Virus record (IMG/VR): IMGVR_UViG_3300019776_000521
Span: 1-64,000 of that record
Direction: 5' to 3' (one strand)
DNA length: 64,000 nt
Source of the DNA: a virus
The position numbers were made by a program, and so were the translations under genes. The notes below the pieces were generated by a model. The model had not been told where the DNA came from and did not search any database. It saw only the letters and a program-made list of their open reading frames with translations. Of the stretch, positions 10,670-63,107 are shown one piece after another (position 1 is the stretch's first letter; the number at the start of each line of letters is the position of its first letter).

Positions 10670-10696
10670 AGCCCTCTTATGAGGGCTTTTTTTTTT
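10670..10696 (+). terminator. intrinsic terminator
   Basis: AGCCCTC-ttat-GAGGGCT followed by a long T run. Confidence 0.85.
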
Positions 10697-37450: not shown

Positions 37451-40400
37451 TTACTTCACAATTGCCATCGCAGTGTGCACCGTAGCCAAGTTGTCCAGTG
37501 CACCAAAGTACTGGAAAGCTCCAGAGTGCAATGGATTGTTTCCAATGTGCTGCGTAAACGAACTATCCAGAACGATGGGTCCGAGTTCCATGTAATGATT
37601 CAGTGCAATGGCTGACAGTACACGGGCCGGGTTCTCCCTGGCCAGCTTCAGCAGCACCCGTTGAATGCGTAGGAAGTACTTGGTAAATGGCGTCAGGCCC
37701 ATGTCGTCCGTGTACTGCAAACCACGGTGCATCGGGATGTCGTAGTTCACAAAGGCATCCGACGCTTCCTGAATTGCAGCTTCACGGCTCAACGGGTTCG
37801 TGCCCCTGCTCACCAGGTGCTGGTACAGCGTGTACCGAGCCACGAAGTCCGACAGCTGTGTAATGCGGCTCAGAGTCTGGTACATGTTGGTGTCATGCGT
37901 CATGTACACCGCCCTGCCTGCAGCACGAATCTTGGGGTTCAGCCTGCTGGTGAACTTCTCCGTCTTTCTCACAAACTCACTCTTGTACGAGTAGATGTTT
38001 TCCTCAGCAGCAAGATCTTCCACGATCGTAGGCATCAGCCCTGCTTCAATCAGTTCCTTGACCGGATTCCTAGCAATCGCGTCTTTCAAGCGAACGATTT
38101 CATCCTTAATTTCCTTTTCCTTACCCAGTCCGTAATCGACCTCCAGCATCGTCTGCAGATCCGCCAAACGCTGGCTATCTCTCTGGTATGCCGTAGCACC
38201 TTTCAACGCCACCAGGTGATGCTGCAATACGTCCTTCAACGACACGCCTGACATGGCAAGCAGCGACAAGTTCGACCAGATGTTCCCAAGCATCACAAAG
38301 CCAGTCTTGACCACAATGATGTCTTTGGTCTCGGCTACCAATTCCTGCCATGCACGTTCGCCCCTGGTGATCACTACGGCTGCTCTCTTGGCGTAATCCT
38401 CTGCGTCAGCTGCAGACAAGCCATGCCGCATGCCTGCGTAGTTTGCAAGCACTGTCTGCACCACATACACAAACAAGCCTTCCAGCTTGTTTCGTGCATC
38501 AGGATCCTTCTGGAACATCGACGCCAAAGTCAGCTTGCGATACCCAAACATGATGTCCAGTGAATCGCTGCGCACCTTCATGCCGTCCCTACCCCACACT
38601 GCCCTGATGTCTTTCTTCGTAGCATCAGGCAGTAAATCCCAGATCGCACGCATCTCAGGATCAGTGCTCCGATCGCCAACTTCAACGTAAGAATCCTTGC
38701 GGGTTGCGTACTCCAGTTCGTACTGTTCACGCAATACAGTGACTGCTTTTTTGTTCTGTTCCCGACTGGTCTCCTTGTCGTAGATCGAACCAGCAATCAC
38801 ACCGATCAGATTCTCAAACCTGTTGTCCCGCTCAAGCAGGTTGTCCTTGGTGGACTCAGCCATCATGTAGCGCCAGTTCACGATCGCACCTGTCTCGTTG
38901 TAGACAGGAATCATGTGGTTTTCTCTTTCAGCTGACAGATCCCTACGCGGATCACCCATACCTTGCATAGCAGCCAGCTTTTCGTTGGTGATGGTCGCTT
39001 GCATGCTTGCATTCTCAAGCCCGTTCAGCGTGTTCACGTTTACGTAGCCGCTGTGCTTTTTGCTGCCCCTAGACTTCATGCTGGACAAGGAAAACGCACC
39101 CGAAAGCCAAGGAGACAAGCCACCGTCCCTGAGCACGTAGATTCGCTTAGTTTCGGTATCCGGGTCAGCACGATCGTTAGACACCAGTGCGCCTGCCGAG
39201 TAGCCCTGGTTCACAAGCTCCTTGCCTTCTGCCTCGGTAGCAATCTTGATCGCTGTATGCGGGTTTAGGATCTCCGGCGTGTAGCCATGGATCATCAGCG
39301 CAGGATTGCCTTTGAACAACCGTTGTAGCGACTCCTCTTCCAGCTGCTTGTGCAGCTTCAACAGGAACTCAACACCGTTGCCATTGTTATCAGTTCGACT
39401 GTTTTCAGTCCTGAAAACTTCTTTGGCTTGGCTCAAGTGGTCACCTGCTGTGTACTTCAAGGCGTACAAAGAGATCAATGCTGCAATCACAGGCTCTGCC
39501 TGTTTTGCTTCAGCCTCAGAGATCTGCCGCTGGTACTGAGTGTTGGCCATCCTGGAGATCAAGTGTGCATTGAGCATCAGCACAGGAATTCTGGCTCGTC
39601 CAGTTGCTTTGAAGTAACCCAAACCATTGATCTGTTCGATGTACTTGTCTTTGTATTTAGAGGTCAGCTGAGACTCAAAGTTTTCAATGGCTTTGTCTAC
39701 TGCCTTGTAATCCCCAACCAGCTTCTCCAAATCAGCAACGCTGTAGTGATTCAGCAAGTTGTGCAAACCAGTTCTTAGAAACACAGCAGACACTGCAGCT
39801 TTGGCTTCCTTGCTCATTGCTTTGCCATTCTGAAACACGCTCAGCACAAGCTTCGAGTGCTGCGTGATGATGTTCTTGCGCTCACCTTCATGGCGCTTGG
39901 TTTCACGCAGCAGAGCATTGAACTTGTCCAACGGTCCCTTCAGTTCATTGAGCAAACTTGCTGCAATGCCTTGCCTGCCTTTGAACTGCTGATCACGAAG
40001 AATTTTCAATCCGTCAATCACTTGCTCCACCCGATCATTGGCAATGGTTCGAGCTATGCCCCCTGCTGCTTGAACAAACGCATTGCCGTTGTTACGAACA
40101 AATGACGAACCAGCAAGGTCACCTGCTTTTTCCCGGATGCCATCTGCCAGCGCTTTGACGCCTCTTTCAACTGGTTCAAGAATGCTGCGCTCTGTTGCAC
40201 GCTTCTTGATGAGCACTCGCTTTTTGGCTTCGATGTCCACCAGCTGGCCAACCAACGCTTCCAGCTTGGCGTCAGCGTTCTGACCAGCGTAGGTGTGCGT
40301 GAACTTCTCATTGAAGAAATTCAAAATGCGCTCAAAGATGCTTTCGAGCTTCTCGGTGAACGTCATGTCCTGGGCTGCTTTGCGTGAAGCAACCTTGGTT

Positions 40401-43400
40401 GCTCTTTTCAACAGCGTATTGAACTTTTCGCTGGCCAGGCCCAGGGCTGCAAATCGAGCCAGGTAATCCGAGCGATCGCCGTTGTTGCTCTCCAGCTTGA
40501 ACACAAAGTCGTAGTCTTCCTGGGACGCAAAATCCGATGGCTTGAGCGTATTGCGCATTTCAAGGTACAGATCAGCCAGCTGCTTGTAGGCAATCTTGGT
40601 TTGGGACTCGTTGCCGTTCAACGCTGCCCGCACGGTGGCTTCCACCTGCTGCATGGCAAAGTCTTCCTGTGCACTACCTGCAAACCCAGACGCCACAATC
40701 GATGATGCAAAGGGAGCGTTGCCTGTTTCCATGGCTTTGAGCCATACCGCCAAGGGATTGCCTGCCTCGGTCTTGCGCATCTGCTCTGCAAACGCACCAA
40801 ACGGGCCGTGGAGCTTCTCTACGATGCCACCCAGTAGGTTGGCCAGGTGCTCCTGGAACGAAGGCTCTACGGAGCCATTGGCCAAGGCGTTGTGGATGTC
40901 CAGGGTCGTGTACTTGTCGATCTGCTCGACGGTCTCCTGAGCAAGGTTCAGGTCGGCGTTGCTTGTCTTCTTTGCTTGAGCCGCTTCCGCAAACAATCCC
41001 GACACATTTGCAACCAGCACAGCCATGCCGTTGTTGAGATTCTCGTCAGGCTTTTTGAACAGCAGTTGCGTCAGCGTAGCGATGAACTTCTTCATGCCGG
41101 TGATCAGCGAGGTGCTGCCGGTCTTGGACTCCATGGTGATCTTGCTCAGCACATCACGCTGCAGGCCCAGGTTGGTCATGCCCCAAGCCACGAACTCTTG
41201 AACGTTGGCCAAAGCTGCCGTGTAGTCGTTCAGTCCGTTTTGCTTTGCATACTCTTGAGCCTTGACCCGCAGAGCTTCAAGCTCAGCCACCAGTGCTGCT
41301 GCTTCGCCGGTTGGCTTGTCGATCACCCGTGCAATCGCTGCGTGCACCAGTTCATGCAGCAATGTTTCGGCTGTCAAACCAGAGTTCTGAAACTCTGGAC
41401 TGAGTACGTAGATTTCCTCCTGGCCATTCTTGACGACGTACCACCCACGGGAATTGGTTGTGGGCTTTTCCAGAACCATGCTTTCCGCTGTCTCGGATGT
41501 CACAAACTTGATCTTCAAGTCAGGGCTAACCACCCGACTGACCAAAGCCAGGATCTTGCGATTGATTGCATTCATCCGTCCAGGTGCACCAAGCAGTGCA
41601 ATCACTTGGGACGCCGAGGCATTCGGATTGGCTTTGAAAAACCTGACCAGATCGCCATCACTTTCAATCTTTGGCGTACCGATTGGTCCAAACAGACTAT
41701 CGGCAGTAGCAACAGGCTTCTCGGTTGCAGGAGCAGGCTTTTCGGAAACACTCATGCCCAGGGCTTCAGAGATGATCACAAGAGCTTCTTGTTCCTTGGC
41801 AGAAAGCCCCTCTTTCAACGCAGACTGCATTGCTGCAGCATCACTACGATCGGCTTCGGTGACTTCGTAATTGCCACCTTCGAGTGCGTACTGATCAACC
41901 GAACCCATCTGGCTCAATGCTTCAAGACGCACACTGTCTGCGCTGAAAGCCGTGCTTGTTGCGTTTTGCAGCATGTCGCTCAGCACCGTGTCAGGGCTCA
42001 TCTCGTTCTCACCTGCAAACTTGTTCAACGCTTGCGTGAGATTCTCGACAACCTGAACAGGAAGATCCTTCTGAGCCAACAGCTCAGACAAGCCAACAAC
42101 CGTGCGAGACAACATGTTCGCCATCTCCGTTGCCGGAGAGTAGTTCAGCAGTGCACTCCAAGTAGCTTGATTCAGGTTCTGTGCTGTCTGACTAAATCCG
42201 CCCAAACCAGATCCATGAGCATCATGGATGTTTAGCACTTCATTGCCATCTGCAGCGTTGTGTGAGATTGCAGAGTCCAGCGAATGCGTGGACATCACGA
42301 CCATTGCTACGCCAGGATTGCTTTCGATCGTTTCAAACGCAGTAGCTTCGACCGATGATTGCTCAACGTAGCCGCCTTTCTTCTTGCTCCAAACCTTGGT
42401 TCCTTTGATTGCAGAACCAAACTTGACATTGCTTTTGAACGTGCTGCGAGTGCTGAGCTTGCGGCTTGATTTCGATGCAAACAGGCCAGCACGCAAGGAA
42501 CCACTTTCCTTGGACATGAGCGTGTGCATCACAGGAGCAAGCTTGCTCACTCGTTTCTTGAGTTCTTCCTGCTGCTTGAGTGTCAGATCGTGAATCGGAC
42601 GGTTCTTGCTATCTACTGCAATTTCACCAGACGCCACCAACTCAGCCAGGTACGCATCACGCAAGCCCATGTACGCTGCGTTGTACAGCTCGAATGAGAA
42701 CTGAGCACTCTTGTTCAGTGCATCGCGTTTGCTGATGAAATTGCCAAAGTCAGCGGACATTGTTTCCGACACTGCTTTGCCCAGCGTGTTCTTGAAGCTG
42801 TTCTTTAATGCCTTGATCTGATCTGAATCAAACTCGTAAGCAAGCAGCTTTTCCACAGACATCAATGAAAGCTTGGCGCCATCACCACCCCTCAGCAATA
42901 CATTGATGTTGTTGATAGTGGCTCGAATATCTGCTTTGCCTGCAGCCACATCTTCCATGCTGGAGTAGATGGATTCAATAAAGCCATCGGCCATGCTGTC
43001 TACAGCCGAACCAACAGAGGAGCCAAAGATCATCGCCGTCAAAGGCGTCTTGATGATGTTTCGACGCTTCTTGAGAATCTCAGGTGTCTCAAGAGTCAGA
43101 TTCCCGGTAAACGCATACACAGCGTTCAAAGTTGCACCAATCTTGCTGTCTTTCAGCAGCATCTTCTGCACGGCATTCGTCATGTGCAATGCAGTGATCT
43201 CGTATAAATCTTTGGCACCAGGCTTACCACGCCAAACGTTGTAGTTGGTGTTGGGATTGCTTTTCTCGAAGAACCCACCACGATTGAGCAAGCCAAACAA
43301 ATCCTTCACAGACTTTGCTGCACCAAGCAGGATATGGCTCAGCATGGGGCCATTGGTTACCCCGTCTACCTCGCCCATCATCTGAACGGAAAAGCTGTTC

Positions 43401-46400
43401 TTGCCATCAAGCTGCGCTTGTGCTTCCGTAGCCAAAGCCATCAGTGCATCCAGCGAATGAAAATTCATTCCGCCTTTCTTGACTCCAGCAAGCAGGACTT
43501 TTCCTTCTTCTGAAGTGATGCCACCTTCAAACACTGTCTTGCGCAACACTGCTACAGCGGCTTTGATCTCCGGCTGATTGACGTAGGATTCATAAGCAGC
43601 CAACGAAGTCTTGTTGGCTTGCTTGTCTGTCTTGACTCCCAGACCTTCAAGAACCCTGAGCCGAAAGTTGTCCATCTGATCGGCATTGCCCATATCGACC
43701 ATCGTGGTCCATGCGTTGCGAAATAGCATGAAGCGATGGATCTTGCTGGTCTGCGGATTGATGACGTTGGTGGCAATACCAACTCGTTGCTGCTTCCACA
43801 CCGAATGCTCAAAATACATTGGAGCTTCGATGTCAGCCATGCTTTTGACAAACTCCATGAACCTATCCAGTTCACGAAGCAGCCCATCGTTCTTTGCCTG
43901 CAAACCTGGCTTGTTGACTGCATGAGTTTTGGTGTCGGAAATCTCAACGACACCTGCAATGCCTTGAAGCACATCGTCACCAAGCTGCGTGATCAGCTGC
44001 CACATGTCTTGCCGCACATAGTTGGCTTCTGCATTCTTGGCAGCAACAATCTTTGCAAGCTTCTCCGGTACGTTCTGGTTGGTGTTGCGTGTCTTTTTCT
44101 GCACAAACGGAACTGGCTCAAGGCTGGGTTCCTTCAAACCAGACTCTACTGAAAACAGCTTGTCGAGCACTCCTTGCGAACCAATGGATGCCTTGACGAT
44201 CCGCTCTGCATCAGCAGGCAAAGTGCTCTGCGCATTCCTGGCAAGTTTGACGAAATGAAATTCTGCGTTCGTGTTCGTGCTTTCCTTGTTCGTCAACGCA
44301 GCCATGGTCTCACCTGAGACTGTTGACCTTTCAAGCAGTCCTAGATCCATCATCAACTTCCATGCATGTGCACCCAGGGAAGCTTCCAGGTCAGGCATCA
44401 GATTGACTGGGGCATCCTTCGACACTTTGAAACCAAGCGCCTGTACAACTGCTTGGCCAAGCGAGTTGCGCACCAGGTTTTCCCTTACGCCTACGTTGCC
44501 GAGCACCATGCGTTCAGCTTGCGAGACGCTGACAGTTTCATCCCGATCGAGAATCGCGTTGATGTCTTCGTCAGTGTTGTACAGATTCTTGGATGCAGCT
44601 TCTGCAACCCAGCTGAACACTGCATAGCTGATTGCAGTCTTCACATTCTGATCAACATCTAGCTTTCCATCGTTCTCTTGGATCAGGTACTGCATCATGT
44701 CTTCGTACCGGAACTCTTTGGTACGAGCACTCAGATTCTTTTGAATCAACCCTTGCCATTGCTGGTTCAGTTCTTGAAACAGCTGCAGCACTTCTTGCTG
44801 CTTGCCGCTGAGAGACTTGATGCCAAGGAAATCCAGAACATTCTGAGCACCCTGGCTCAGGAAGTTTTTCACCTTCACTAAAGGCCGCTCAGTCAGATCG
44901 CCTTCACGACTGGCTTGCTGAGTGAAGAAGTCTGCAATGAGGTTACGAAGAGGAAACGATGTCCCCTCCGTGGACTTTTCCTGAAGCGTCGTAACAGCAC
45001 CAGGCTGCGTAGACAGTGCACTTGCGACCTCTTCAGAAACTGGAACAACCTCTGAAGGGGTCGTGCTAGTCTGCTCAGTAGACTGCAGTTGACCTTGATT
45101 TGTCTCAGGAGACGCAACAGTTGTCCTAGTAGAGCCGGAGGCTCCTACAGACGCAGCAGGCTCACCCGAAACACTTTCTACGGTTTGTCCAGCGGCGGAT
45201 TCAGTTGCTGCGGTTGCTGGTACTGAGGGGTTGACGGCTCCTCCTTCAACTCCTCCGGTCGGCTGACTCGTACCTGCTTCAGTCGAGGGCGCAGTTTCTG
45301 TGCGATTCGGACTGGCTTGTAATCCTTCGAGTGTTTGCGATACGTTCGAGACATTACTGACTCCATTGGAAATAGGTTGGGCAAACTTCAGCCCGTAGGC
45401 TGCTCGAAGCTCTGTTGCCGCCTTGGTCAGTGCATCCGATTCAATCTGAATGTTATCAACAATTTTGGTGCTGTTCCTGACAATATCCAGGCCACCATTT
45501 TGCTGACGTTCTTTTTGACTGGGCCATTTCCCAGTTTCAATCGACCAGCTTCCATTGCCATCACTAACAATGCGCCGCTCCTGCCCGTCTTTCTCAAACA
45601 GGGCTTTTGCTTCAGCAGCCACTTGTGCTTTCTGCTGATGGTCGCTGACAAAGTTGTCCAGCAGCTGCAACTGCGCAGTAGCGGCTTTTGAGTTGTTTGC
45701 TGCCAGTGCAGTCGTGACATTGGCTCGGTATTGCTGAATACCGATGTTCCCTTTGCCGCCATAGAAAACCTCCTTCGAGACCTTATCCATGGTCTTGAGT
45801 TGGTTCTCTGCTTGCCGTGCTTGCGTGAATGCCCGCAGGTAGCCCCGCTGCGGGTCCGTCAGGCCGTTTGTCGTGTCATTGGCAAGCGACGCAGCCAGGT
45901 TGGTATCCAGGCGCTCTGGCGTGGCCATAGACAGGTTGATGATGCTGTCCGCTGCAGCCTGTGAAGCTACCGGATCAGCAGCAGTGATCTTTGCAGCCTC
46001 AGCTTCTACATCCAGCTCCTTGGATTGGTTTTCCTGATTGAAGTTATTCAGCACCTCCTGAGCTGATGCAATCTGCTCATCAAGCCGAGAGATCTGCTTT
46101 TGCAACCTTGGACCAGCGTCTGTCTCCTTGGCCAGGGTTGCAAGTTCAGCTTCCAGAGCATCGACGGTAGGCTGATCTCCAGCTTCTCTGGCTTGAACCA
46201 GTTGAGCCATGTAGCCAGCCACAGCTTCAGGCGAGATAGAAGCGTAGTTTTCTTCTGCTTTTTGTTTCTGCTCAAGCAGATCAGACACGATGCCCGATGC
46301 CTGCTCAAACTTTGCTTGTTTCAGTTCGGGCGTAGCGGTCGGCAATTGGCTGTGGCCATACAAAGCCGATACAGCCTGATCTGGGGCGTAGGACGGGCTT

Positions 46401-47647
46401 TTGGGATCCAGGAAGGTAGTGACATCACCTGAGACAATCGCAGCTTGTAGGGCTTCTGCTTTCGTTGCGTCGGCTACTTTCTTTTCAAATTTAAGCAGAG
46501 ACATTTCGGATGCAGACTTCAAAGTCTGAATACCACCACCCATGATTCCGCCCATGAAGGCACCCTGACCAGCAGCAGCACCAACGCCATCAAAAAGCTC
46601 TTGTGCTGGCTTAATCTCCTTGACTGCAGAATTTCCAAAATAGCGTCCGCTACCCTCTTCTATTCCTTCCTGCCCAGCTTCTCCAACAAATGCTTTGGGT
46701 ACAGCAACAAAACCACCTGCTTTCTTGCCAATCAGAGCTTTCTCAATTGCAGTACCACCAGGAAGTGCAGAAGAAAACAACGAAACTGCTCCTGCTTTAA
46801 GCGTAGCTTCTCCGGCCAACTGCGATGCAATAGCTTGCTTGGCTTGTTGAGGACCAAGGCTTTCAGCCAAAGCTACATACTCAGGGTTTTGATCCCAAAC
46901 AGCATCAGGCAACGACATCATTCGCTGCATCGTGTCTGAACCAACATCGACACCTTGCAACACAGCGCCCGTACCAACAGCAGCAGCTGTGCCACTCTTT
47001 TCCACAGCAATCTGTCCGGCTTTGGTTGCTGCAACTTTAGGCAGTGTTTTGGCTGTAGCAGCAGCAGCTAGTTCAGCACCACGACCTACTTTGCTCATCA
47101 CTCCCAGTTGCGCTGCTTGTTGAGCCAAAAACTCAGGAATGCTTCCTGGGTCTTTTGCAGCTTCCCAGAATGCAGCACCAAACTCTGCAGCAACTTGCCC
47201 AGCTACACCTGTTACGCCATCACCTAAAGCTTCCCGTGCTGCTTTGCCCGCTTTGCCAGCAACCACTGCTTTTTCTTGATTTTTGGCTTGAGCAAAAGCT
47301 GATTTCAGTTTTTCTCGTTCATCAGACATTTTGCTGATGTCTTGTGTTTCAGGCCCGTACCAATCACCAGTGGTAGCTTTGTCGTAAACCATCGCTGGCA
47401 ACTTGGCCAGTCCATCGATACCTTGAACAGCTGACAAAGCCAAGTCTTTTGTGTAGTCCCCCCACGACCTACCTTCATCAATGGCTTGATCTCTGGCTAC
47501 TTGCGCAGTGTTTTGCGCCAACGCTTGCCGGTAAGTTTCCAAGCCAGCAAGCTTCTCTTGACGAGCTTGAAGAATTTGATCAATCTTTTCAGGATTCGGC
47601 GCACCATACTTTTGAAGCAAATACTGATCAACATTGAAGGTGGCCAT
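37451..47647 (-). CDS. virion RNA polymerase (N4 gp50-like), about 3398 aa
   Basis: Start MATFNV; no Cys seen; EVDGVTNG, RNIIKTPLTAMIFG, IHDA; synteny. Confidence 0.95.
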   Translation of the reverse strand: MATFNVDQYLLQKYGAPNPEKIDQILQARQEKLAGLETYRQALAQNTAQVARDQAIDEGRSWGDYTKDLALSAVQGIDGLAKLPAMVYDKATTGDWYGPETQDISKMSDEREKLKSAFAQAKNQEKAVVAGKAGKAAREALGDGVTGVAGQVAAEFGAAFWEAAKDPGSIPEFLAQQAAQLGVMSKVGRGAELAAAATAKTLPKVAATKAGQIAVEKSGTAAAVGTGAVLQGVDVGSDTMQRMMSLPDAVWDQNPEYVALAESLGPQQAKQAIASQLAGEATLKAGAVSLFSSALPGGTAIEKALIGKKAGGFVAVPKAFVGEAGQEGIEEGSGRYFGNSAVKEIKPAQELFDGVGAAAGQGAFMGGIMGGGIQTLKSASEMSLLKFEKKVADATKAEALQAAIVSGDVTTFLDPKSPSYAPDQAVSALYGHSQLPTATPELKQAKFEQASGIVSDLLEQKQKAEENYASISPEAVAGYMAQLVQAREAGDQPTVDALEAELATLAKETDAGPRLQKQISRLDEQIASAQEVLNNFNQENQSKELDVEAEAAKITAADPVASQAAADSIINLSMATPERLDTNLAASLANDTTNGLTDPQRGYLRAFTQARQAENQLKTMDKVSKEVFYGGKGNIGIQQYRANVTTALAANNSKAATAQLQLLDNFVSDHQQKAQVAAEAKALFEKDGQERRIVSDGNGSWSIETGKWPSQKERQQNGGLDIVRNSTKIVDNIQIESDALTKAATELRAAYGLKFAQPISNGVSNVSNVSQTLEGLQASPNRTETAPSTEAGTSQPTGGVEGGAVNPSVPATAATESAAGQTVESVSGEPAASVGASGSTRTTVASPETNQGQLQSTEQTSTTPSEVVPVSEEVASALSTQPGAVTTLQEKSTEGTSFPLRNLIADFFTQQASREGDLTERPLVKVKNFLSQGAQNVLDFLGIKSLSGKQQEVLQLFQELNQQWQGLIQKNLSARTKEFRYEDMMQYLIQENDGKLDVDQNVKTAISYAVFSWVAEAASKNLYNTDEDINAILDRDETVSVSQAERMVLGNVGVRENLVRNSLGQAVVQALGFKVSKDAPVNLMPDLEASLGAHAWKLMMDLGLLERSTVSGETMAALTNKESTNTNAEFHFVKLARNAQSTLPADAERIVKASIGSQGVLDKLFSVESGLKEPSLEPVPFVQKKTRNTNQNVPEKLAKIVAAKNAEANYVRQDMWQLITQLGDDVLQGIAGVVEISDTKTHAVNKPGLQAKNDGLLRELDRFMEFVKSMADIEAPMYFEHSVWKQQRVGIATNVINPQTSKIHRFMLFRNAWTTMVDMGNADQMDNFRLRVLEGLGVKTDKQANKTSLAAYESYVNQPEIKAAVAVLRKTVFEGGITSEEGKVLLAGVKKGGMNFHSLDALMALATEAQAQLDGKNSFSVQMMGEVDGVTNGPMLSHILLGAAKSVKDLFGLLNRGGFFEKSNPNTNYNVWRGKPGAKDLYEITALHMTNAVQKMLLKDSKIGATLNAVYAFTGNLTLETPEILKKRRNIIKTPLTAMIFGSSVGSAVDSMADGFIESIYSSMEDVAAGKADIRATINNINVLLRGGDGAKLSLMSVEKLLAYEFDSDQIKALKNSFKNTLGKAVSETMSADFGNFISKRDALNKSAQFSFELYNAAYMGLRDAYLAELVASGEIAVDSKNRPIHDLTLKQQEELKKRVSKLAPVMHTLMSKESGSLRAGLFASKSSRKLSTRSTFKSNVKFGSAIKGTKVWSKKKGGYVEQSSVEATAFETIESNPGVAMVVMSTHSLDSAISHNAADGNEVLNIHDAHGSGLGGFSQTAQNLNQATWSALLNYSPATEMANMLSRTVVGLSELLAQKDLPVQVVENLTQALNKFAGENEMSPDTVLSDMLQNATSTAFSADSVRLEALSQMGSVDQYALEGGNYEVTEADRSDAAAMQSALKEGLSAKEQEALVIISEALGMSVSEKPAPATEKPVATADSLFGPIGTPKIESDGDLVRFFKANPNASASQVIALLGAPGRMNAINRKILALVSRVVSPDLKIKFVTSETAESMVLEKPTTNSRGWYVVKNGQEEIYVLSPEFQNSGLTAETLLHELVHAAIARVIDKPTGEAAALVAELEALRVKAQEYAKQNGLNDYTAALANVQEFVAWGMTNLGLQRDVLSKITMESKTGSTSLITGMKKFIATLTQLLFKKPDENLNNGMAVLVANVSGLFAEAAQAKKTSNADLNLAQETVEQIDKYTTLDIHNALANGSVEPSFQEHLANLLGGIVEKLHGPFGAFAEQMRKTEAGNPLAVWLKAMETGNAPFASSIVASGFAGSAQEDFAMQQVEATVRAALNGNESQTKIAYKQLADLYLEMRNTLKPSDFASQEDYDFVFKLESNNGDRSDYLARFAALGLASEKFNTLLKRATKVASRKAAQDMTFTEKLESIFERILNFFNEKFTHTYAGQNADAKLEALVGQLVDIEAKKRVLIKKRATERSILEPVERGVKALADGIREKAGDLAGSSFVRNNGNAFVQAAGGIARTIANDRVEQVIDGLKILRDQQFKGRQGIAASLLNELKGPLDKFNALLRETKRHEGERKNIITQHSKLVLSVFQNGKAMSKEAKAAVSAVFLRTGLHNLLNHYSVADLEKLVGDYKAVDKAIENFESQLTSKYKDKYIEQINGLGYFKATGRARIPVLMLNAHLISRMANTQYQRQISEAEAKQAEPVIAALISLYALKYTAGDHLSQAKEVFRTENSRTDNNGNGVEFLLKLHKQLEEESLQRLFKGNPALMIHGYTPEILNPHTAIKIATEAEGKELVNQGYSAGALVSNDRADPDTETKRIYVLRDGGLSPWLSGAFSLSSMKSRGSKKHSGYVNVNTLNGLENASMQATITNEKLAAMQGMGDPRRDLSAERENHMIPVYNETGAIVNWRYMMAESTKDNLLERDNRFENLIGVIAGSIYDKETSREQNKKAVTVLREQYELEYATRKDSYVEVGDRSTDPEMRAIWDLLPDATKKDIRAVWGRDGMKVRSDSLDIMFGYRKLTLASMFQKDPDARNKLEGLFVYVVQTVLANYAGMRHGLSAADAEDYAKRAAVVITRGERAWQELVAETKDIIVVKTGFVMLGNIWSNLSLLAMSGVSLKDVLQHHLVALKGATAYQRDSQRLADLQTMLEVDYGLGKEKEIKDEIVRLKDAIARNPVKELIEAGLMPTIVEDLAAEENIYSYKSEFVRKTEKFTSRLNPKIRAAGRAVYMTHDTNMYQTLSRITQLSDFVARYTLYQHLVSRGTNPLSREAAIQEASDAFVNYDIPMHRGLQYTDDMGLTPFTKYFLRIQRVLLKLARENPARVLSAIALNHYMELGPIVLDSSFTQHIGNNPLHSGAFQYFGALDNLATVHTAMAIVK

Positions 47648-47687
47648 ATAGTCTTTCGGTCTGAAGGAAGTGGTAGCTATTCTAAAG

Positions 47688-47712
47688 AAAAAGCCGGGAG
47701 TTACCCGGCTTT
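47688..47712 (-). terminator. hairpin/terminator upstream of vRNAP
   Basis: AAAGCCGGG-agtta-CCCGGCTTT with A run on left (T run on minus strand). Confidence 0.65.
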
Positions 47713-47714
47713 GA

Positions 47715-49679
47715 TTATTGCCTTGCTCTAAACACTGGTGGATAAACAGGATTGGGGTCTTTCCACAAGCCACGCTTTTCTTTACGTGCAGTGTTTTCTG
47801 CAATGTTGAGATCAACGTTCCTGAGAGTTTGCTGCGCAAACGCTTTGTACACCCAAGCTGCACCTTGCTCTACCATGGCATGGTCAAGACCTTTGCCTTC
47901 AATCTCAACCTGACAAATAGATCTACCGGCGTACTTGCCATCAGGACGAACAATTCTGATGTTCACTTCTTTGTTGAGAATCAGCTCTTCCAGACGTTTC
48001 TTCGATTCCTCTCCAAACGGCTGACCATTTTTGTTGTACTGCTTCTTTGCAGTCTCCGGTGCGTCGATCGTATCTATCCTGCAGTTGATTCCGTTTTCAG
48101 AAGAAAACGTGTCTCCATCAGCAACGTAGCTAACTACTGCTTTTACCCCGGTGCCTTTTGGAATAGCACCAGGAGCAGCTTTTACTGCGCTGACTGGTTG
48201 CTTCCATTTGACATCTTTGGGTAGCTCTATCGGATCAGTTTTAGCTACCGGAGAACCATTGACAGGATTGAGAGCAAAGCCAGTCGAATCAGCTACGGCT
48301 GGCTTTGATTTTGACGAAGTAGAAAAACCGCTGTTGAAGCTAACAGCAGCTGGAGCCTCAGTTACCTCTTTTTTTTTTTCCGGTGCGCTTGTTTCAGCTT
48401 TTGCACTGGAGATAGCTCCGTACCTCTGAAATTCTTCGATCAGCGGATCAACGGCCAGAGTCTGAGGAACATCAATCAGACCACCTCGTCCAACAATCCT
48501 CTGTGTTGGTCCACTAACCTTTGGTTTAGGCAGCAGACTTTCAATCTTCTTATCAAAGCTGTCAGCGTAACCTTTGCTACCAAACCAGTTGGTATCAACT
48601 GAAGAAAGCAAAGCCGATTTCACAACACTAAGCGGAACAGGTACGTTGACTGTAATCGGCTTTCCATCTTCACCAATGGTAGTCCGAGTGATACCATTTT
48701 TGGCAAGATTGGAAATTCTTTCCATCAGGTATGCACGACCGTTGCTGTCGTCTTTGCCACCAATTCCGTTAGTCTTTGCAATGGTAGCAAGCTCTACAAG
48801 ACTGTCTGGAGTCAGCAGCCCACCTTTGTACACGTTGTCTTGTAACGCAAGATCTAGCTTCTTGACGTTTTGAGCAGCAGCACGTTCACGCTCTGCTCGG
48901 TCAGCAGTCAATCTTGAAGCGTTTGTTGAAGCTTCTGAAGCACTGATGCGGGCTTGTATTTCTTTTCGAACCAAGTCGGCATTGTTAACTGTGTTTTGAA
49001 GACTTTGGTTATCAAGACCAGCTTTGGTAACAGCAAGAGGTCGCAGCAAAGCACGTTGTGATTCTTCTGTGCCTCGACGAGTTTCTTCTGCTACTCGGCG
49101 CTTCTCTTCTTCAGTATCAAAACCAAACCTTGTTGAAGCACGATCTCGTTCTGTCAGAGTCTGCTGCCGCGTATCGATCGTCTTTGCCAGGTTCACGGCT
49201 TCCCGCAGATCAGGTCGAGCAGCCAGCATCTCGCCTGCACGCTTTGGATCCTGCAAAGCCATGAGGTTGATCGCACGAACGTCTGCTTCCTGAGCAGCAT
49301 CCAGCATCGTGTTCTTGTACGTGATGCCTTGAACGTCACGCTGCTGGAGCGTATTAACGCGCCCATCACGAAGAGCATTCACTGCAGCCCGATCAATCAC
49401 AGCGCCATTTGCAGCAACAGCTTGATCCAGTGCACCAGACCTGTTCAAAACGTTGAACTGGTCCACGTTTTCAGCTTGATAAATCTTGCTCAACGCATCT
49501 TGCGTAGCAGCTTGATCTTGTCGTTTCCACAAAGCCTGATCGAAAGTATCGCTTTCTTTGAGAGTGCTTTTCAGGCTGTCAAACGCTCCAGCAAAAGCCT
49601 GTTGCGCATAAGCAAGCGGACGACTGGCATCTGCCAGGGAAGGTCCGGTAACGGTACGCCAAGTGATGGGGGTAGCCAT
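47715..49679 (-). CDS. N4 gp51-like ejection protein with C-terminal thermonuclease (SNase) domain
   Basis: PITWRTV start typical of gp51; DGDT, RIDTIDAPE, KYAGR, GAAWVY, ARKEKRGLW. Confidence 0.85.
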   Translation of the reverse strand: MATPITWRTVTGPSLADASRPLAYAQQAFAGAFDSLKSTLKESDTFDQALWKRQDQAATQDALSKIYQAENVDQFNVLNRSGALDQAVAANGAVIDRAAVNALRDGRVNTLQQRDVQGITYKNTMLDAAQEADVRAINLMALQDPKRAGEMLAARPDLREAVNLAKTIDTRQQTLTERDRASTRFGFDTEEEKRRVAEETRRGTEESQRALLRPLAVTKAGLDNQSLQNTVNNADLVRKEIQARISASEASTNASRLTADRAERERAAAQNVKKLDLALQDNVYKGGLLTPDSLVELATIAKTNGIGGKDDSNGRAYLMERISNLAKNGITRTTIGEDGKPITVNVPVPLSVVKSALLSSVDTNWFGSKGYADSFDKKIESLLPKPKVSGPTQRIVGRGGLIDVPQTLAVDPLIEEFQRYGAISSAKAETSAPEKKKEVTEAPAAVSFNSGFSTSSKSKPAVADSTGFALNPVNGSPVAKTDPIELPKDVKWKQPVSAVKAAPGAIPKGTGVKAVVSYVADGDTFSSENGINCRIDTIDAPETAKKQYNKNGQPFGEESKKRLEELILNKEVNIRIVRPDGKYAGRSICQVEIEGKGLDHAMVEQGAAWVYKAFAQQTLRNVDLNIAENTARKEKRGLWKDPNPVYPPVFRARQ

Positions 49680-50305
49680 TATTTCACTCCGTTGCGCTGC
49701 ATGTAAGAGCCAACAGACTCATACGCACCAGGATTGGATGCCACACGCGCTTTTTGCCGATCTTCCAGAGAAGAATTTGTGGTGGTCTTTTGAGCTTCAA
49801 AGTTGCGTTCAAACTGCGACTTGCTGTTTTCAAAAACGTCTTTAGCCAGGTTGTACTGCTGCATGCCCATGTACAAGCTTCCAAGACCTTGAGCTGCACC
49901 AAGTGCCAAACCACCCCAGCCCTGCTGATCGCGTGAGCCAAGAAACCCGCTGTCTCGAAGGTAGCCGGTAATGCCTCCTCCACCGCTCCCAGCTGAAGAA
50001 AAGTCTCCCCATGCGCCAGGAATGCTGTTTGCACCAAAGATGCTGGTTCCATCCAATGCTTGCTTGGATAGCGGGCTGACCATGTTGACCGGATCGTTGG
50101 GCATCATGGCTGGCTGATTGGTGTAGCCACCCCAGTCTCCCCACGCACCAGGAACAGAATTGGCACCAAACGAATTGGTGCCATCCATGGTGTTTTTCTT
50201 GAACGTCTGCTGAGGAGTGAGCAATCGTGGATCGACTCGGGGAGGCAAGTAGTCCATTCCATAACTTCCAGAACCCATAGGCTGGTAATCGTATTTGCTA
50301 GGCAT
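49679..50305 (-). CDS. N4 gp52-like ejection protein
   Basis: Gly-rich TM-like region; NSSLEDRQKARVA; synteny. Confidence 0.75.
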   Translation of the reverse strand: MPSKYDYQPMGSGSYGMDYLPPRVDPRLLTPQQTFKKNTMDGTNSFGANSVPGAWGDWGGYTNQPAMMPNDPVNMVSPLSKQALDGTSIFGANSIPGAWGDFSSAGSGGGGITGYLRDSGFLGSRDQQGWGGLALGAAQGLGSLYMGMQQYNLAKDVFENSKSQFERNFEAQKTTTNSSLEDRQKARVASNPGAYESVGSYMQRNGVK

Positions 50306-52514
50306 AAGAGGAATCTCCTAACGTGTCTTTCAATTTGGGAAGGGTGAGTGCGACATCCACGTAGTAGGAGATTGCAGTGATACCCAATGTTCCGATGTTA
50401 CCGGAATGTACTGTTCGATTATAAAAGGCTTGCGGCTCTTCCCCAAATATGACAATGGGAGCCAACAGATTATTGCTTTCAAGCAAGTCTTTGGCTTCAT
50501 CAAGAAGCTTGGTTTGCTCTTGGGCATAGTTGAAAAAGTCAGCTTGTTCAGTCATCAAGCCTTCCATTTTGGCTTGCATGATTGCTTGCTGAAGACCTGT
50601 AGAAAGCTGAAGCATTGCTTCGGCCCAGGGCGCTCCTTGTACACCGCCTGCTGTAATGAGTTCATAACCGCCGTAAAGCAAGGCTATGAGCGCAACAACA
50701 GTGGCAAGCTCTGTACCAAACGCTTTGACAAACAACTTGAAGCCGACTGCCAACAGCTGGCCGACAACCAAGTTCACGACAATCGTGGCTATAAGACCTG
50801 CTGATCCAGTCAAGCCAAGTGCTGTTGCAATAAATGATCCACCGTCAGCACCATAGGTATAAACCGTAATGATGATGGCAACGATAACCAGCAATAATTG
50901 AAACAAACCAGTCTGATACCACTTTACTTCTGTAACTACCCTGCTGTTGAAAACAAAATGCAATGACCTTGCATACAGAGTTTCTCTGTCTGGAATTGGG
51001 TAAGTACTAGAAATACTCTTGTCGATCGGAATCAGCAAAATGTTGTCTGTTTCATCTGCGGTAGTCGTGTACTCCCCGTATACGTAGTACGTCATCTTCA
51101 GGTTTGAAACTTGGATCTCTTCAAACAATCCAACAGCAATTTGCTTGCGATACGTGTGTGTGCCTGAAGGGATGCTTGTATAGGTTATGGCTCCAGTCTC
51201 AGAGTTCACAAACTCTGTCTGAACGTTAACTGATGAAAACAAACTGGTGTGCGTACCAATAACACCAATGGAACCTGCAACAATTTTCTTGTAGATGCCT
51301 TCGTTAGACAAAGCCATCTTGAATTGTGAATCTTTGATGATCGACGCATTTCGTGATACAGACCCATCACCAAATTTCGATTGAAGAGCGCTCAATGCTG
51401 GATAAGCCGTACCACCCATTGCGTAATGCATGGCGTCAAAATAGTCAAAAAGATACCTGCACTCAATTTGGTTTGTAGATACTGCTGGTACACCCAGCAT
51501 AAGCATGGCTTGCTCTACATCTGCAATATCCGGGTTATCGTCAATGGCTTCTGCCATCAAATCAAAATCAATTCCCAAATACTTGACCATCTTTTTTGTG
51601 GTCAAGTACGCCTGAGTTGTTTTGTTTGAGATGACGGATTGCTTGTTGTACCGGAAGTACGCAAACGGAAAATAAGAGCCATTGACTGCAGGGCCATCGA
51701 CAAACACATTGTCAAGGCTTGGGTAAGTACCAAGCTTGTTCTTGTACATCCAGTATTTGGTCTGCCCTGAGAACGAATACTTTGCGTGAAAGTAATCTGC
51801 TGTGAAATCATATTCCTGCACAGACAGGACAAACGATTCTTCGCTCAATGGAGCGTTGGCTGAAGCCTTCCACACGTAAGTCACCTTGAGGTGCAAATCA
51901 GTGGCTGTAGGGCTTTTGTAGATCGGAGATGGTGGAGCAAGGGATACCACACCCCCAAGGCTTGCAAGACGCTCTGGCGTGTATCCAGAGGCTGCAGCGG
52001 TACCCCATTGATCCAGTGCACCAAGCTCAAATGAATCCGCCTGGTTTGCAGGGACAACCACCACCATGTCTTTCAAATAGACAGGAGCGCCTTTCTGAGC
52101 AGAAAGTACGCTCATCTGATTTGTGGCTTGGCTGTAGCCATACTGGGAAACCAGCTTTGTCCAGCCAATATGCAGTGCATTTGGCGGACCATAGTGCGAG
52201 TACTCCATGAACACTTGTTGGCCTTCAAGCGTTTCAATGACTGCTTCGACCTGTAGGCGTCCCTGGGTAGAAGAGTACACATCTCCCGATGGCAAGCCGT
52301 AGACGTAGTGATCTTCGGCGTATCGGTACATGCGTTCAGCCCTTACGCCAACGCTTGCAGCCAACTCTTCCATTACAAAATCGGTCAGATCACCTTCATT
52401 GAAAAATGACTTGATGACCCCAGTCTTGATCGACTGAGGCATTGCGTCGTCTTTGATAACTCGGGAGACAACCGTACCGACTGTAGTTCTGTAGCTGCTG
52501 CTGAACAGTCCCAT
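50298..52514 (-). CDS. N4 gp53-like protein
   Basis: MGLFS start, VKWYQTG followed by hydrophobic block; synteny. Confidence 0.8.
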   Translation of the reverse strand: MGLFSSSYRTTVGTVVSRVIKDDAMPQSIKTGVIKSFFNEGDLTDFVMEELAASVGVRAERMYRYAEDHYVYGLPSGDVYSSTQGRLQVEAVIETLEGQQVFMEYSHYGPPNALHIGWTKLVSQYGYSQATNQMSVLSAQKGAPVYLKDMVVVVPANQADSFELGALDQWGTAAASGYTPERLASLGGVVSLAPPSPIYKSPTATDLHLKVTYVWKASANAPLSEESFVLSVQEYDFTADYFHAKYSFSGQTKYWMYKNKLGTYPSLDNVFVDGPAVNGSYFPFAYFRYNKQSVISNKTTQAYLTTKKMVKYLGIDFDLMAEAIDDNPDIADVEQAMLMLGVPAVSTNQIECRYLFDYFDAMHYAMGGTAYPALSALQSKFGDGSVSRNASIIKDSQFKMALSNEGIYKKIVAGSIGVIGTHTSLFSSVNVQTEFVNSETGAITYTSIPSGTHTYRKQIAVGLFEEIQVSNLKMTYYVYGEYTTTADETDNILLIPIDKSISSTYPIPDRETLYARSLHFVFNSRVVTEVKWYQTGLFQLLLVIVAIIITVYTYGADGGSFIATALGLTGSAGLIATIVVNLVVGQLLAVGFKLFVKAFGTELATVVALIALLYGGYELITAGGVQGAPWAEAMLQLSTGLQQAIMQAKMEGLMTEQADFFNYAQEQTKLLDEAKDLLESNNLLAPIVIFGEEPQAFYNRTVHSGNIGTLGITAISYYVDVALTLPKLKDTLGDSSYA

Positions 52515-52532
52515 CTGATTTCCGATTCAGAA

Positions 52533-52564
52533 TAAAAAAATGGGGAGCGCAATGCTCCCCATTT
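52533..52564 (-). terminator. intrinsic terminator
   Basis: A run then ATGGGGAGC-gcaat-GCTCCCCAT. Confidence 0.8.
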
Positions 52565-52578
52565 CAGAGATCAAATGC

Positions 52579-57407: not shown

Positions 57408-59573
57408 TTATTTGTCTTTTTTCAGCATGTATTGCTTCAGAAGATCACGATCTTGGTCTTCTTTATCGAATTGACGGTCCAAAAGCTTCAACTGAGCCTG
57501 ACTTCGGGCCTGTTCTCCATGGAGTTCTTTAGCCCGCTCTTGTTTCACACCAGACTCCTGCTCAACAAAGTCCAGGTTCTTCAAATCAGTATCCGATTTG
57601 ATCTGACCTTGCTTGGCTTGCTCAGTTCCAGACTTGGCTGAGTGGAGTTGCGCAGTAGATTGGTAGCTCATGGCCTGTGCATTCTCTTTGGCAATCTGTG
57701 CCTTGAGCAATTCGATCTCCAACTGCGCTTTTTCCTGAACCAAAGGATCCGGCTGAGGCTGGAACGTCATGATTCTGTGGGCCAAGTCAGGCATTTTCCG
57801 TAGTTTGGCGATGTCGGAGAGAATCATCTTCATCATTTCAGGATCGGAATTGGGTCCGACCGTCTGAAGCAGGAAACCCAGCTGCTCTGCCTTGTTGGTA
57901 TCTTCTTCGGCTGTGGAAATCGACAACCGCAGATCAAAATTACCAGGCAGATCGTCCTTGCGAACGGTGACAAACTCCTCGTTGGTGACCCGAACCACCT
58001 CTGTATCGGAGAGAAACTCGGCATTCATGCTGATGATCTTCCGACCCACCTTGATGATGCCGTTGGATAGCCGTCGCAGGATGGCAAGCTCGCGCTTGGA
58101 AGCCGCATCCAAGGCCCCACGAACGCCTGCAGCGACATCCCCAAGGCTTTGCCCTGAGACGCCCTGGGAGTACGCCTTGACGCCTGTGAGGGACTCCGCT
58201 TCCATGTTCTGCATGCTCAGCATGAACTGTGCAGATTCAGGAATTTGAGGGAAAACGTGCATGTGCACACCTTGCCGGGGATCCACATTGGCGTTGAATT
58301 CGTAATCCTGGCCTTTGTCGAACTTGCGTCGATTAGTGGTATCCAGCATGTCCTTGCGGATACCCGTCTGACCATTGGCCGATTTGCCCATGATGTCGAT
58401 CATTCCACGGGTAACTGCTCCGATGACCTTCTGGTTGTCTTCCAGGAGTGCTCCATCAGGCTCGCCGTAGATACTCTTGCGAACGGGTAGATACTGAGCC
58501 GAGACAAAAGGAATCTTCTTGTCAGGGTAGGGATTCTCTTCCATTCGGATCAGGGTATCTCCTACCCAGGCAGCAACAAATGGCTTGACGATTCCCGTGC
58601 CGTCAATATCCCAGTAACCCCAATACTCATAAACCACGAATTTCTTTCGTGGCTTGTCACTGAAATTGAAGTTCTTCGAACCATCGGACGATGAATGGTC
58701 CGGTTGATTCAGGATCGAGTTTCCAGTGAGATTGATCTTGTCGAGATTCTTGTACTTGCCGTCCTTTTCCAGCTGAGAAAGAGACGACTCAAAGCTGTAA
58801 ATGACAAAGTTGGCTTTCTCAATGTCGCCCATGCAGGTCGGATCAATGATCACGTTGCGGTAATCACAGACTTCCAGGGTGGGCTTGTTGCTCACCGTTC
58901 GGGTGCGCTTTTCTTCCTTTTGCCCAATGACCACGGGTTCAATAGGCTGGCCCTGCTCCATCGTCAGATCGTGAGCCTGCTTCAGTTCTTCCGGTACGTC
59001 GGTGGCGTATTGGCTGGGAGACTCCTGCATCATCTTGTGAAGATGCTCATGCATCGGAGCAAACTCAGGGTTCACCCTGAACTCGACTTCAGGAAAAGTA
59101 CCTGTGTATTCCTCTTCGATAAACTCCCAGCCGACTCGGACAATTACCGTGCCTTCGTCCACTGCAGCACGGACGTATTCATCCACAAACTGTGTCTTGT
59201 CAACGGCGACATTGAACTGGTGATTCAACAGCAGCTGGTTTTGTTCAGCTGCTTGTCGATCTTCCCAAGTGATTGGTTTGACGTTGAATACATCGTCGGT
59301 ACTGAGGAAGGGTTCACTCAGTGATGCATAGCGCCATTCGGCCTGTTTCCGAATCAGCTTCGGTACAATGCTCGAATTGCCCTTTGGCGTTTCAATCTTG
59401 GCTTTGCCGGTGACATTCAGGTTATCTAGCCAGATACCTATCTTGGCTTCCTGAGCATCATGAATCGACCGAGCATCCAGCAAATCCTGCTTTAGGTCTG
59501 CAATTGTCGGCGCTTTAGCCCATTTGGTCAGCGGCTTGGGGTCGTTGTTTGTCTGTTCGGTCTTTTCATTCAT
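57408..59573 (-). CDS. portal protein (N4 gp59-like)
   Basis: PKLIRKQAEWRY, YEYWG, RGALDAASKRE, LDFVEQESG. Confidence 0.92.
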   Translation of the reverse strand: MNEKTEQTNNDPKPLTKWAKAPTIADLKQDLLDARSIHDAQEAKIGIWLDNLNVTGKAKIETPKGNSSIVPKLIRKQAEWRYASLSEPFLSTDDVFNVKPITWEDRQAAEQNQLLLNHQFNVAVDKTQFVDEYVRAAVDEGTVIVRVGWEFIEEEYTGTFPEVEFRVNPEFAPMHEHLHKMMQESPSQYATDVPEELKQAHDLTMEQGQPIEPVVIGQKEEKRTRTVSNKPTLEVCDYRNVIIDPTCMGDIEKANFVIYSFESSLSQLEKDGKYKNLDKINLTGNSILNQPDHSSSDGSKNFNFSDKPRKKFVVYEYWGYWDIDGTGIVKPFVAAWVGDTLIRMEENPYPDKKIPFVSAQYLPVRKSIYGEPDGALLEDNQKVIGAVTRGMIDIMGKSANGQTGIRKDMLDTTNRRKFDKGQDYEFNANVDPRQGVHMHVFPQIPESAQFMLSMQNMEAESLTGVKAYSQGVSGQSLGDVAAGVRGALDAASKRELAILRRLSNGIIKVGRKIISMNAEFLSDTEVVRVTNEEFVTVRKDDLPGNFDLRLSISTAEEDTNKAEQLGFLLQTVGPNSDPEMMKMILSDIAKLRKMPDLAHRIMTFQPQPDPLVQEKAQLEIELLKAQIAKENAQAMSYQSTAQLHSAKSGTEQAKQGQIKSDTDLKNLDFVEQESGVKQERAKELHGEQARSQAQLKLLDRQFDKEDQDRDLLKQYMLKKDK

Positions 59574-62915: not shown

Positions 62916-62924
62916 AGGAACCAT

Positions 62925-63089
62925 ATGGGAATTACAGAACTCATCACCATTCTCAACAACCGTCTGAACTATCTTGCAATCCAACGCAACGAAGCGTTCT
63001 CCAGGGGCGACCTTTCGATGCTTTCGATGTTCGACGCAGACATTCAAACTACCACGGCTACCCTGAGTCAGCTGCAATCCTTGGGGTAA
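62925..63089 (+). CDS. small hypothetical protein (54 aa)
   Basis: AAGGAA RBS, ATG 62925, TAA 63087, terminator follows. Confidence 0.6.
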   Translation: MGITELITILNNRLNYLAIQRNEAFSRGDLSMLSMFDADIQTTTATLSQLQSLG

Positions 63090-63107
63090 GCTGATCAAAC
63101 CCCAATG

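Follow-up and report, generated by a model that had tools for sequence, protein, structure and literature searches.

A predicted staphylococcal-type nuclease at the C-terminus of an N4 gp51-like ejection protein, with candidate recoding signals at the junction

The known role of ejection proteins in short-tailed phages is to build a channel, and a cell-wall hydrolase is carried by some of them; gp16 of phage T7, which we take to be an internal virion protein that is ejected and that bears a lytic transglycosylase, is likewise a case of an enzyme riding on the ejected protein of a podovirus. We analyze here a gene of an uncultivated virus of the N4-like (Schitoviridae) type that joins an ejection protein to a thermonuclease (SNase) domain. 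It lies on the minus strand of positions 1 to 64,000 of IMG/VR record IMGVR_UViG_3300019776_000521 (this 64,000-nucleotide stretch is called the window below); the record itself is a 73.5-kb contig that is rated complete. The closest deposited case is gp80 of Acinetobacter phage Presley (annotated as "lytic tail fiber protein, contains SLT domain"), which occupies the position of N4 gp51 and is followed by a terminator; the cargo of Presley gp80 is a cell-wall hydrolase, whereas that of the window gene is a nuclease. The proteins that best describe the carrier are gp51 of phage N4 and gp72 of Pseudomonas phage DEV (both Schitoviridae; PDB 8vxq and 9bgo). According to the parts of the two structural papers that are drawn on here (PMC11445570, PMC13434306), twelve copies of gp72/gp51 are arranged round the portal in the virion, and after ejection the protein refolds to a 9- or 10-mer tube that spans the periplasm; the N-terminus of the tube contacts the outer-membrane pore protein, and its C-terminal end lies more than 200 Å from the outer-membrane end, at the inner membrane, where the virion RNA polymerase (vRNAP) binds. 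The same portions of PMC13434306 describe N4 gp50, gp51 and gp52 as ejected into the host, and the N4 ejection proteins as being without a peptidoglycan hydrolase (its abstract assigns gp51 to the outer-membrane complex and gp52 to the tunnel, while its results and discussion have the reverse; we follow the main text).

The identity of the C-terminal domain of the window protein as SNase, and its fusion to the carrier, are secure. The Pfam SNase model (PF00565) matches residues 534–641 (window 47757–48080) with an E-value of 8.6e-20 and 71.6 bits, against a cut-off of 21; a second hidden Markov model (HMM) search, of the genome, finds SNase at the same place (E 2.3e-22, 75.6 bits), and a phmmer search of the PDB sequences matches S. 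aureus nuclease chains over residues 520–643 (E 3e-07), with about 26% identity. The thermonuclease models of NCBIfam match only below threshold, and PADLOC gives no match. An AlphaFold2 model of residues 481–654 is disordered before residue 512 and has a mean predicted local distance difference test score (pLDDT) of 90.3 from there onward. This model is an OB-fold barrel with three helices, for which Foldseek finds staphylococcal nuclease 1snc (E 1.5e-08, target-normalised template modelling (TM) score 0.73; the 1snc/1stn matches have E of about 1.5e-08 and TM 0.71–0.79, also target-normalised), as well as the SN domains of human SND1. The initial annotation of this stretch, which was made by a model from the letters and their open reading frames (ORFs), had read a C-terminal SNase domain at 47715–48150 from the motifs DGDT (residues 521–524), R..IDAPE (534–542) and GR (585–586); the SNase HMM match, a check that it had proposed, the PDB matches and the predicted fold all bear this out, and its coordinates were essentially correct (the fold occupies approximately residues 508–645).

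In the phmmer alignment D523, R534, D539, E542 and R586 fall opposite S. aureus D21, R35, D40, E43 and R87, and A540 occupies the position of T41. We take the Ca2+ ligands of the S. aureus enzyme to be Asp21 and Asp40 (with Thr41 contributing its backbone oxygen) and its catalytic residues to be Arg35, Glu43 and Arg87. These ligands and the catalytic Arg/Glu/Arg are conserved here, and the domain is predicted to be a catalytically intact, Ca2+-dependent nuclease of the SNase type. It has the same fold as the S. aureus nuclease (Nuc, PF00565) and differs from it in being without a signal peptide, in standing at the C-terminus of a carrier that belongs to a virion-protein family, and in having a conserved segment of about 25 residues (about residues 483–507) directly before the fold. 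A search with residues 481–654 gave 9388 cluster representatives at E ≤0.001, of which the best 150 were examined. All five key residues are intact in 122 of these; R586 is retained in all 150 and E542 in 148, and in most of the representatives with an incomplete set D40 is replaced by N or E. The five positions are likewise invariant in a 42-sequence alignment, apart from the D40 position, which is incompletely conserved. Two cysteines, C533 (48081–48083) and C589 (47913–47915), flank two catalytic arginines on strands 3 and 5 of the model. Both are present in 120 of the 150 representatives, none of which has the first cysteine without also having the second; where they are replaced, the replacements are large/small pairs (for example I-G or V-A), a pattern expected of residues that touch. 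A C533–C589 disulfide is possible; the S. aureus enzyme presumably has no comparable pair.

By its sequence the carrier belongs to the N4 gp51/DEV gp72 family of tunnel ejection proteins. Its body (residues 1–445) has 60 metagenome homologues, which are 396–533 residues long, and the body profile matches the DEV gp72 structure in the PDB (8vxq_R / 9bgo) over positions 1–303 with an E-value of 4.2e-10. With hhalign the same profile matches N4 gp51 with 84.6% probability (E 6.8e-06) over residues 1–160 only, and the N4 delta-C gp51 chain gives an E-value of 0.12 against it. The gene is placed between that of a small membrane ejection protein and that of vRNAP, as in N4 and Presley; the minus-strand order of the phrog_2220 protein, the phrog_2646 protein, the fusion ORF and vRNAP is the N4 order gp53-gp52-gp51-gp50. 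This synteny confirms the gp51 position that the initial annotation had given to the gene, and the ejection of N4 gp50–52 on which that annotation had leaned is the one described in the text of PMC13434306 cited above. The window protein is thus like N4 gp51 and DEV gp72 in its homologous N-terminal body and in its position between a gp52-like protein and vRNAP, and it differs from them at its other end: as described in the same sources, N4 gp51 (644 residues) ends in hydrophobic helices and DEV gp72 (521 residues) ends in the vRNAP-binding region, neither of them having a nuclease, whereas the window body stops at residue 437 and is followed by the linker and SNase. No hydrophobic (membrane-spanning) segment was found in the window protein or in any of the 10 proteins of the present family that were scanned, including all six of the hydrolase carriers described below, and soluble DEV gp72 is likewise described as without one. 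The linker (residues 438–507) contains 11 A, 9 P, 9 S and 8 V among its 70 residues, as expected from the Pro/Ala/Ser-rich stretch that had been noted there. The closest homologue of the body (P0002, 448 residues, 77–81% identical) has a lysine run as its C-terminus, precisely where the window protein continues.

The association between this kind of body and this kind of cargo is, judging from the protein sequences, old and recurrent. Forty-eight of the 150 representatives are at least 400 residues long, and SNase is at the extreme C-terminus in 45 of them. The body HMM finds a gp51-type N-terminus in 29 of the 48, and inspection by eye adds 8 that either share its N-terminal motif or look like such proteins called in truncated form. 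Among 36 fused proteins the identity to the window protein is about 50% in the nuclease as against 31–38% in the body, and the distance matrices of body and cargo are correlated (Mantel r 0.27, a value reached by 1 of 2000 permutations). Another 60 of the 150 representatives are short (about 160–260 residues) and consist of a Pro/Ala/Ser/Thr-rich stretch, the pre-SNase segment and SNase, without a signal peptide, and 11 short representatives have a signal peptide and resemble ordinary secreted bacterial nucleases. Gene callers split or misplace this cargo in metagenomes: some 60 of the 150 representatives have the appearance of orphan "linker + nuclease" proteins. The possibility of a secreted late protein was considered and rejected, as the signal peptide is absent from the window protein and from the 60 linker-plus-SNase representatives.

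The survey of gp51 C-terminal cargo that had been proposed earlier thus finds SNase repeatedly, and it finds a second enzyme as well. Among 37 related carriers, six have a cell-wall hydrolase domain (SLT or glucosaminidase) placed between the body and SNase; the tandem-enzyme carriers are locus L013 (fused gene 605–3028) and proteins P0073, P0115, P0120, P0147, P0158 and P0174. The nuclease cargo is common among uncultivated N4-like phages. No Schitoviridae match to the nuclease part was found among 50,697 deposited phage records, a set from which close relatives of the window's own genome may be missing (P0001 matched 3 records, none of them Schitoviridae, and there were none among the 15 matches listed for each of P0147 and P0073). 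In addition, P0154 (2297 residues; phrog_30152, "virion structural protein") also ends in this type of SNase, P0094 (400 residues) has SNase behind an endolysin-like domain, and BFVD matches of 965–1368 residues end in the same type of domain, so nuclease cargo on virion proteins may extend beyond the N4-like phages. An SNase match in Moraxella phage Mcat8 is a free 239-residue protein outside the structural genes, and was set aside as uninformative.

Fifteen N4-like loci with the nuclease were compared (a metagenome scan yielded only 8 loci); 6 are in-frame fusions (4 lineages) and 9 are split (7 lineages). In the split loci (L003, L004, L011, L012, L014 and L091–L094) the nuclease is a separate ORF of about 240 codons, which is in the -1 frame in all nine cases. 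In all nine, too, the stop codon of the body is a TGA inside GTGA, and an X_XXY_YYZ heptamer (A_AAA_AAG, A_AAA_AAA or C_CCA_AAG) stands in zero-frame register 1–3 codons before it. The -1 frame is open across the site in every split locus and reads Lys-Lys-x-Glu/Pro-Val-Thr there, which is matched by the in-frame junction of the window gene, Lys-Lys-Lys-Glu-Val-Thr. Such a heptamer is present in none of 7 cargo-free gp51-like genes (L002, L005–L008, Presley and N4), all of which end in TAA, and in a control it was found in the last ten codons of only 2 of the 74 stop-to-stop ORFs of at least 150 residues in the window. Stable hairpins follow the heptamer by 3–6 nucleotides in L003 (-30.5 kcal/mol, z -1.9), L011 (-42.5, z -3.2) and L014 (-32.5, z -2.5), and the fused locus L016 has one after its A-run (z -3.9); where the run is long, as in L012, L013 and the window, the downstream hairpin is no better than in shuffled sequences (z -0.5 to -1.5). 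Long A-runs are not known to require a stimulatory RNA structure.

Runs of A9 to A11 stand at the body/cargo boundary in fused genes of three lineages, including that of the window. In L013 and in L016/L017/L095 an A9 is placed exactly at the boundary, and both other frames stop within 3–7 codons; L016 and L017 have the same A9 in two separate assemblies, and the A9 of L013 precedes both of its enzymes (the cell-wall hydrolase and SNase). The fused genes L015 and L018 have no A-run. In the window gene the run is A11, and when it is read in the zero frame the body continues into the linker and nuclease. Counting from within the A11, a stop is reached in the -1 frame after 6 codons, which would give a product of 440 residues, and in the +1 frame after 4, which would give one of 438; A_AAA_AAA is in register within the run. 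Both of the other frames stop almost at once, so slippage on A11 should yield a bare subunit. There is no in-frame start codon after A11 before codon 572, which is inside the SNase domain, so that the nuclease would be made here only as a fusion. The run is contrary to the phage's preference for AAG (149 AAG versus 81 AAA in vRNAP), and no other homopolymer of 8 or more lies within a gene anywhere in the 64 kb; the one further homopolymer in this class is a T10 at 10687–10696, between the DNA polymerase gene (which ends at 10506) and an ORF that starts at 10711. A 10-bp hairpin followed by a U-rich tract is present at 48326–48351 (minus strand), 17 nucleotides downstream of A11 in the linker-coding region; terminator-like sites such as this one are no commoner than in shuffled sequences.

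These two layouts parallel those of dnaX. As given in the portions of PMC5009743 used here, E. coli dnaX has A_AAA_AAG with a -1 shift, and Thermus dnaX is a single ORF with transcriptional slippage, near stops in both other frames and products in a ratio of about 1:1. The dnaX tau/gamma and phage λ G/GT loci each make two products with a shared N-terminus in a set ratio, and both dnaX layouts are found in the present family, that of Thermus in the window gene and that of E. coli in the split relatives; the difference is that here the putative recoding would determine if an enzyme is attached to a structural subunit. We infer that this gene family yields two proteins per locus, a bare and a nuclease-armed tunnel subunit; many of the relatives have their cargo in the -1 frame, downstream of a frameshift site, and the nuclease is therefore probably on only some of the copies. 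The initial annotation missed both the slippery A11 and the arrangement of the relatives, in which the cargo is reached through the frameshift site.

The best overall explanation, to which we give a probability of roughly 0.5, is that the gene encodes a tunnel protein which bears, behind a flexible linker, a recoding-dosed, Ca2+-gated nuclease that is delivered with the ejectosome and acts in the periplasm. RNA polymerase slippage on A11, or a -1 ribosome slip on A_AAA_AAA, would give a bare subunit of 438 or 440 residues beside the armed subunit of 654 residues, and the relatives would obtain the same pair of products in reverse, from a nuclease ORF that lies in the -1 frame and is reached through an in-register heptamer. 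Armed subunits would be packaged with the others round the portal and would leave the virion when a host is infected. As long as the phage is being produced, the low Ca2+ of the cytoplasm would keep the nuclease inactive; activation would follow in the next host, where the enzyme would come to lie in the periplasm, at the tunnel's inner-membrane end. The probable target, which is a guess on our part, is nucleic acid of foreign or competitor origin that is present unprotected in the envelope. Several observations point to the periplasm. The C-terminus of a carrier of this family is at the inner-membrane end of the tube, and SNase, as described in the part of PMC5035972 consulted, needs about 0.5–1 mM Ca2+ and is inactive inside cells. 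The peptidoglycan hydrolase that some relatives have in tandem with the nuclease, without a membrane segment, argues in the same direction, as the periplasm is the only place where a cell-wall hydrolase could do its work, and so does the conserved Cys pair, if it forms a disulfide. Finally, the phage DNA would be enclosed by the tunnel while in the periplasm, and this would answer the question, raised by the initial annotation, of how the genome is spared.

Several points weigh against this explanation. A Ca2+-activated nuclease beside packaged DNA, in water that contains Ca2+, is the very trick by which engineered viruses are made to destroy themselves: in capsid-targeted viral inactivation, as described in PMC5035972 (in the part used here), SNase joined to a virion protein stays inactive at the low Ca2+ of the cytoplasm, gains activity outside and destroys the virus's own genome there. 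A natural phage lineage that keeps such a fusion must avoid this outcome in some way; it is possible that the cargo is unfolded or sequestered, that recoding keeps its copy number low, or that the condensed DNA is inaccessible. No periplasmic substrate is known, and the DNA of other phages normally crosses the periplasm in conduits of its own. Both products, the presence of the long one in virions and the nuclease activity are predictions from sequence. In the window gene, moreover, slippage is argued by the A-run alone, the structure downstream of A11 being a hairpin no better than that of shuffled sequence (z -0.8), and the A11 could be an assembly miscount. Ordinary termination and reinitiation at the GTGA of the split loci, with production of a free protein of about 240 residues, is possible, although it leaves the heptamers in those loci unexplained. 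Lastly, the D539 position is N or E in 21 of the 150 representatives, and the Cys pair could reflect plain core packing rather than a disulfide.

Other explanations of the same observations were weighed. The initial annotation had favoured a virion-delivered nuclease that acts on host DNA or RNA before phage gene expression, and in such a scheme the nuclease would be carried through the channel with vRNAP into the cytoplasm, to cut host DNA and RNA or the nucleic acids of a defence system there. The carrier is of an ejected kind whose C-terminus, as described for its relatives, is at the inner-membrane complex beside vRNAP, the catalytic residues are intact, and SNase cleaves both DNA and RNA (PMC5035972, in the part consulted). 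However, the same source describes enzymes of this type as requiring roughly millimolar Ca2+ and as inactive intracellularly; the phage genome would be exposed to the enzyme too, the tethered molecules available would number about a dozen at most, the conserved Cys pair fits an oxidising compartment, and in 6 of 37 relatives the same chain carries a peptidoglycan hydrolase in tandem, without a membrane segment. We therefore regard cytoplasmic action as unlikely. What stands of the earlier interpretation is the real fusion, the intact catalytic residues and the family of ejected tunnel proteins, and what is not supported is the attack on host DNA and RNA in the cytoplasm, in view of the Ca2+ requirement, the location of the C-terminus and the tandem hydrolases. 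It also seems improbable to us that the long isoform is not delivered by virions at all, and is instead a late protein that works at the producing cell, either set free by lysis into medium that contains Ca2+, to digest host DNA and so release the progeny, or serving as an assembly helper of the λ G/GT type that mature particles lack. Such a role would keep a nuclease away from packaged DNA, it has a precedent in λ gpG and gpGT, both of which are missing from virions (PMC5009743, in the portions cited above), and secreted SNases are described in literature abstracts as clearing extracellular DNA. But the attachment of the cargo to an ejection protein, by fusion or by frameshift (at least 37 cluster representatives are fused), would then have no explanation, nor would its occurrence in tandem with cell-wall hydrolases that serve entry, and the whole of gp72/gp51 is described as a virion component in DEV and N4.

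The remaining two alternatives concern the junction and the domain itself. If the fusion in the window were a homopolymer-length error of assembly, the true run would be A10 and the gene a split one, whose tunnel protein has about 438 residues and whose nuclease is made via a -1 frameshift only. One A fewer would indeed produce the exact layout of L012, in which the slippery heptamer is followed by a stop two codons on, and P0002, the closest body homologue, ends in its Lys run at the same point. We nevertheless give this little credence, since other lineages, too, have in-frame fusions with A9 at the boundary (identical in the separate assemblies L016 and L017), L015 and L018 are fused without any run, the HMM identifies 29 of the 48 long representatives as in-frame fusions and the N-terminal motif another 8, and the window has no start codon from which a separate nuclease ORF could be read. 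An A10 would in any case alter the default product, not the biology. That the domain is a non-catalytic OB-fold binder of nucleic acid, which might for example tether one end of the genome close to the portal or to the exit of the tunnel, is very improbable: the window protein and 122 of the 150 relatives retain the full set of five Ca2+ and catalytic residues, even though inactive SN-like domains do exist (the SN domains of SND1 are among the best fold matches) and the carrier, as described for N4 and DEV, surrounds the portal and so is next to the DNA.

The nuclease is a new type of cargo on a known kind of ejection protein, and under the explanation that we prefer, periplasmic action of a nuclease delivered with the ejectosome, it would represent a new class of virion-delivered weapon that precedes phage gene expression. 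The word "nuclease" occurs 0 times in PMC11445570 and PMC13434306, although their supplements may list gp51/gp72 homologues with extra domains. Our searches found no literature that links Schitoviridae, N4-like phages or ejection proteins with a thermonuclease or SNase, and none, among the matches listed, that joins Schitoviridae or N4-like phages with frameshifting; the conserved recoding signal that accompanies the cargo is apparently undescribed, as far as the literature searched shows. If real, the slippery junction would put recoding to a new use, that of setting the number of armed subunits in an injection machine, and it would exist in two forms within one family. The finding also raises a puzzle, in that the phage appears to hold a Ca2+-activated nuclease beside its own dense DNA, and it lends itself to direct tests, the domain being that of a very thoroughly studied enzyme. 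More tentatively, and with considerable doubt, we suggest that a widespread group of N4-like phages uses recoding, by a -1 frameshift in some lineages and by poly-A slippage in others, to load a set, small number of armed subunits. The nuclease would then be the natural counterpart of the engineered capsid-nuclease fusions: harmless to the packaged genome and switched on only in the periplasm of a new host, it would destroy unprotected competitor DNA there from the first seconds of infection, before phage gene expression.

The features of the locus and its surroundings are collected in Table 1. The N4-like (Schitoviridae) genome type of the virus is apparent from its PHROG matches, which include vRNAP, portal, major head protein, DNA polymerase and primase. 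Its portal protein is less than 60% identical to that of each of 590 matching deposited phages, and a megablast search of window positions 44000–52600 against phages gave no relative at the nucleotide level.

Table 1. Coordinates of the fusion gene, its parts and its neighbours in the window
Feature	Position	Strand	Basis or remark
Whole ORF (body, linker and SNase), 654 aa	47715..49679	-	Stop codon 47715-47717
Body, aa 1-437, assigned to N4 gp51 / DEV gp72-type periplasmic-tunnel ejection proteins	48369..49679	-	Homologues, profile match, synteny
A11 homopolymer, body/cargo boundary, codons E434-K437	48369..48379	-	Sequence
Linker, aa 438-507, A/P/S/V-rich	48159..48368	-	Composition; low pLDDT in model
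SNase (thermonuclease) domain, aa 508-645	47745..48158	-	Pfam, PDB-sequence match, alignment, AlphaFold2 model, Foldseek
Terminator-like hairpin (9 bp, 6 GC, then T-run)	47690..47712	-	Between nuclease-gene stop and vRNAP start
Virion RNA polymerase (gp50-like), 3400 aa, phrog_2206	37451..47647	-	Downstream neighbour; likely start ATG at 47647
gp52-like small ejection protein, 208 aa, phrog_2646	49679..50305	-	Upstream neighbour, overlaps fusion ORF start
gp53-like protein, 738 aa, phrog_2220	50298..52514	-	PHROG match
Portal	57411..59573	-	PHROG match

The terminator-like hairpin sits in the 67-nucleotide gap that separates the stop of the fusion gene from the start of vRNAP, and Presley has an annotated terminator in the same position; such a hairpin could reduce the expression of vRNAP relative to that of the tunnel protein. 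Elsewhere in the window, two long ORFs overlap on opposite strands, one of 927 aa at 60132–62912 (plus strand), which is without a PHROG match, and one of 703 aa at 60987–63098 (minus strand). A single tRNA gene, for tRNA-Arg with the anticodon ACG, is present at 14057–14133 on the plus strand.

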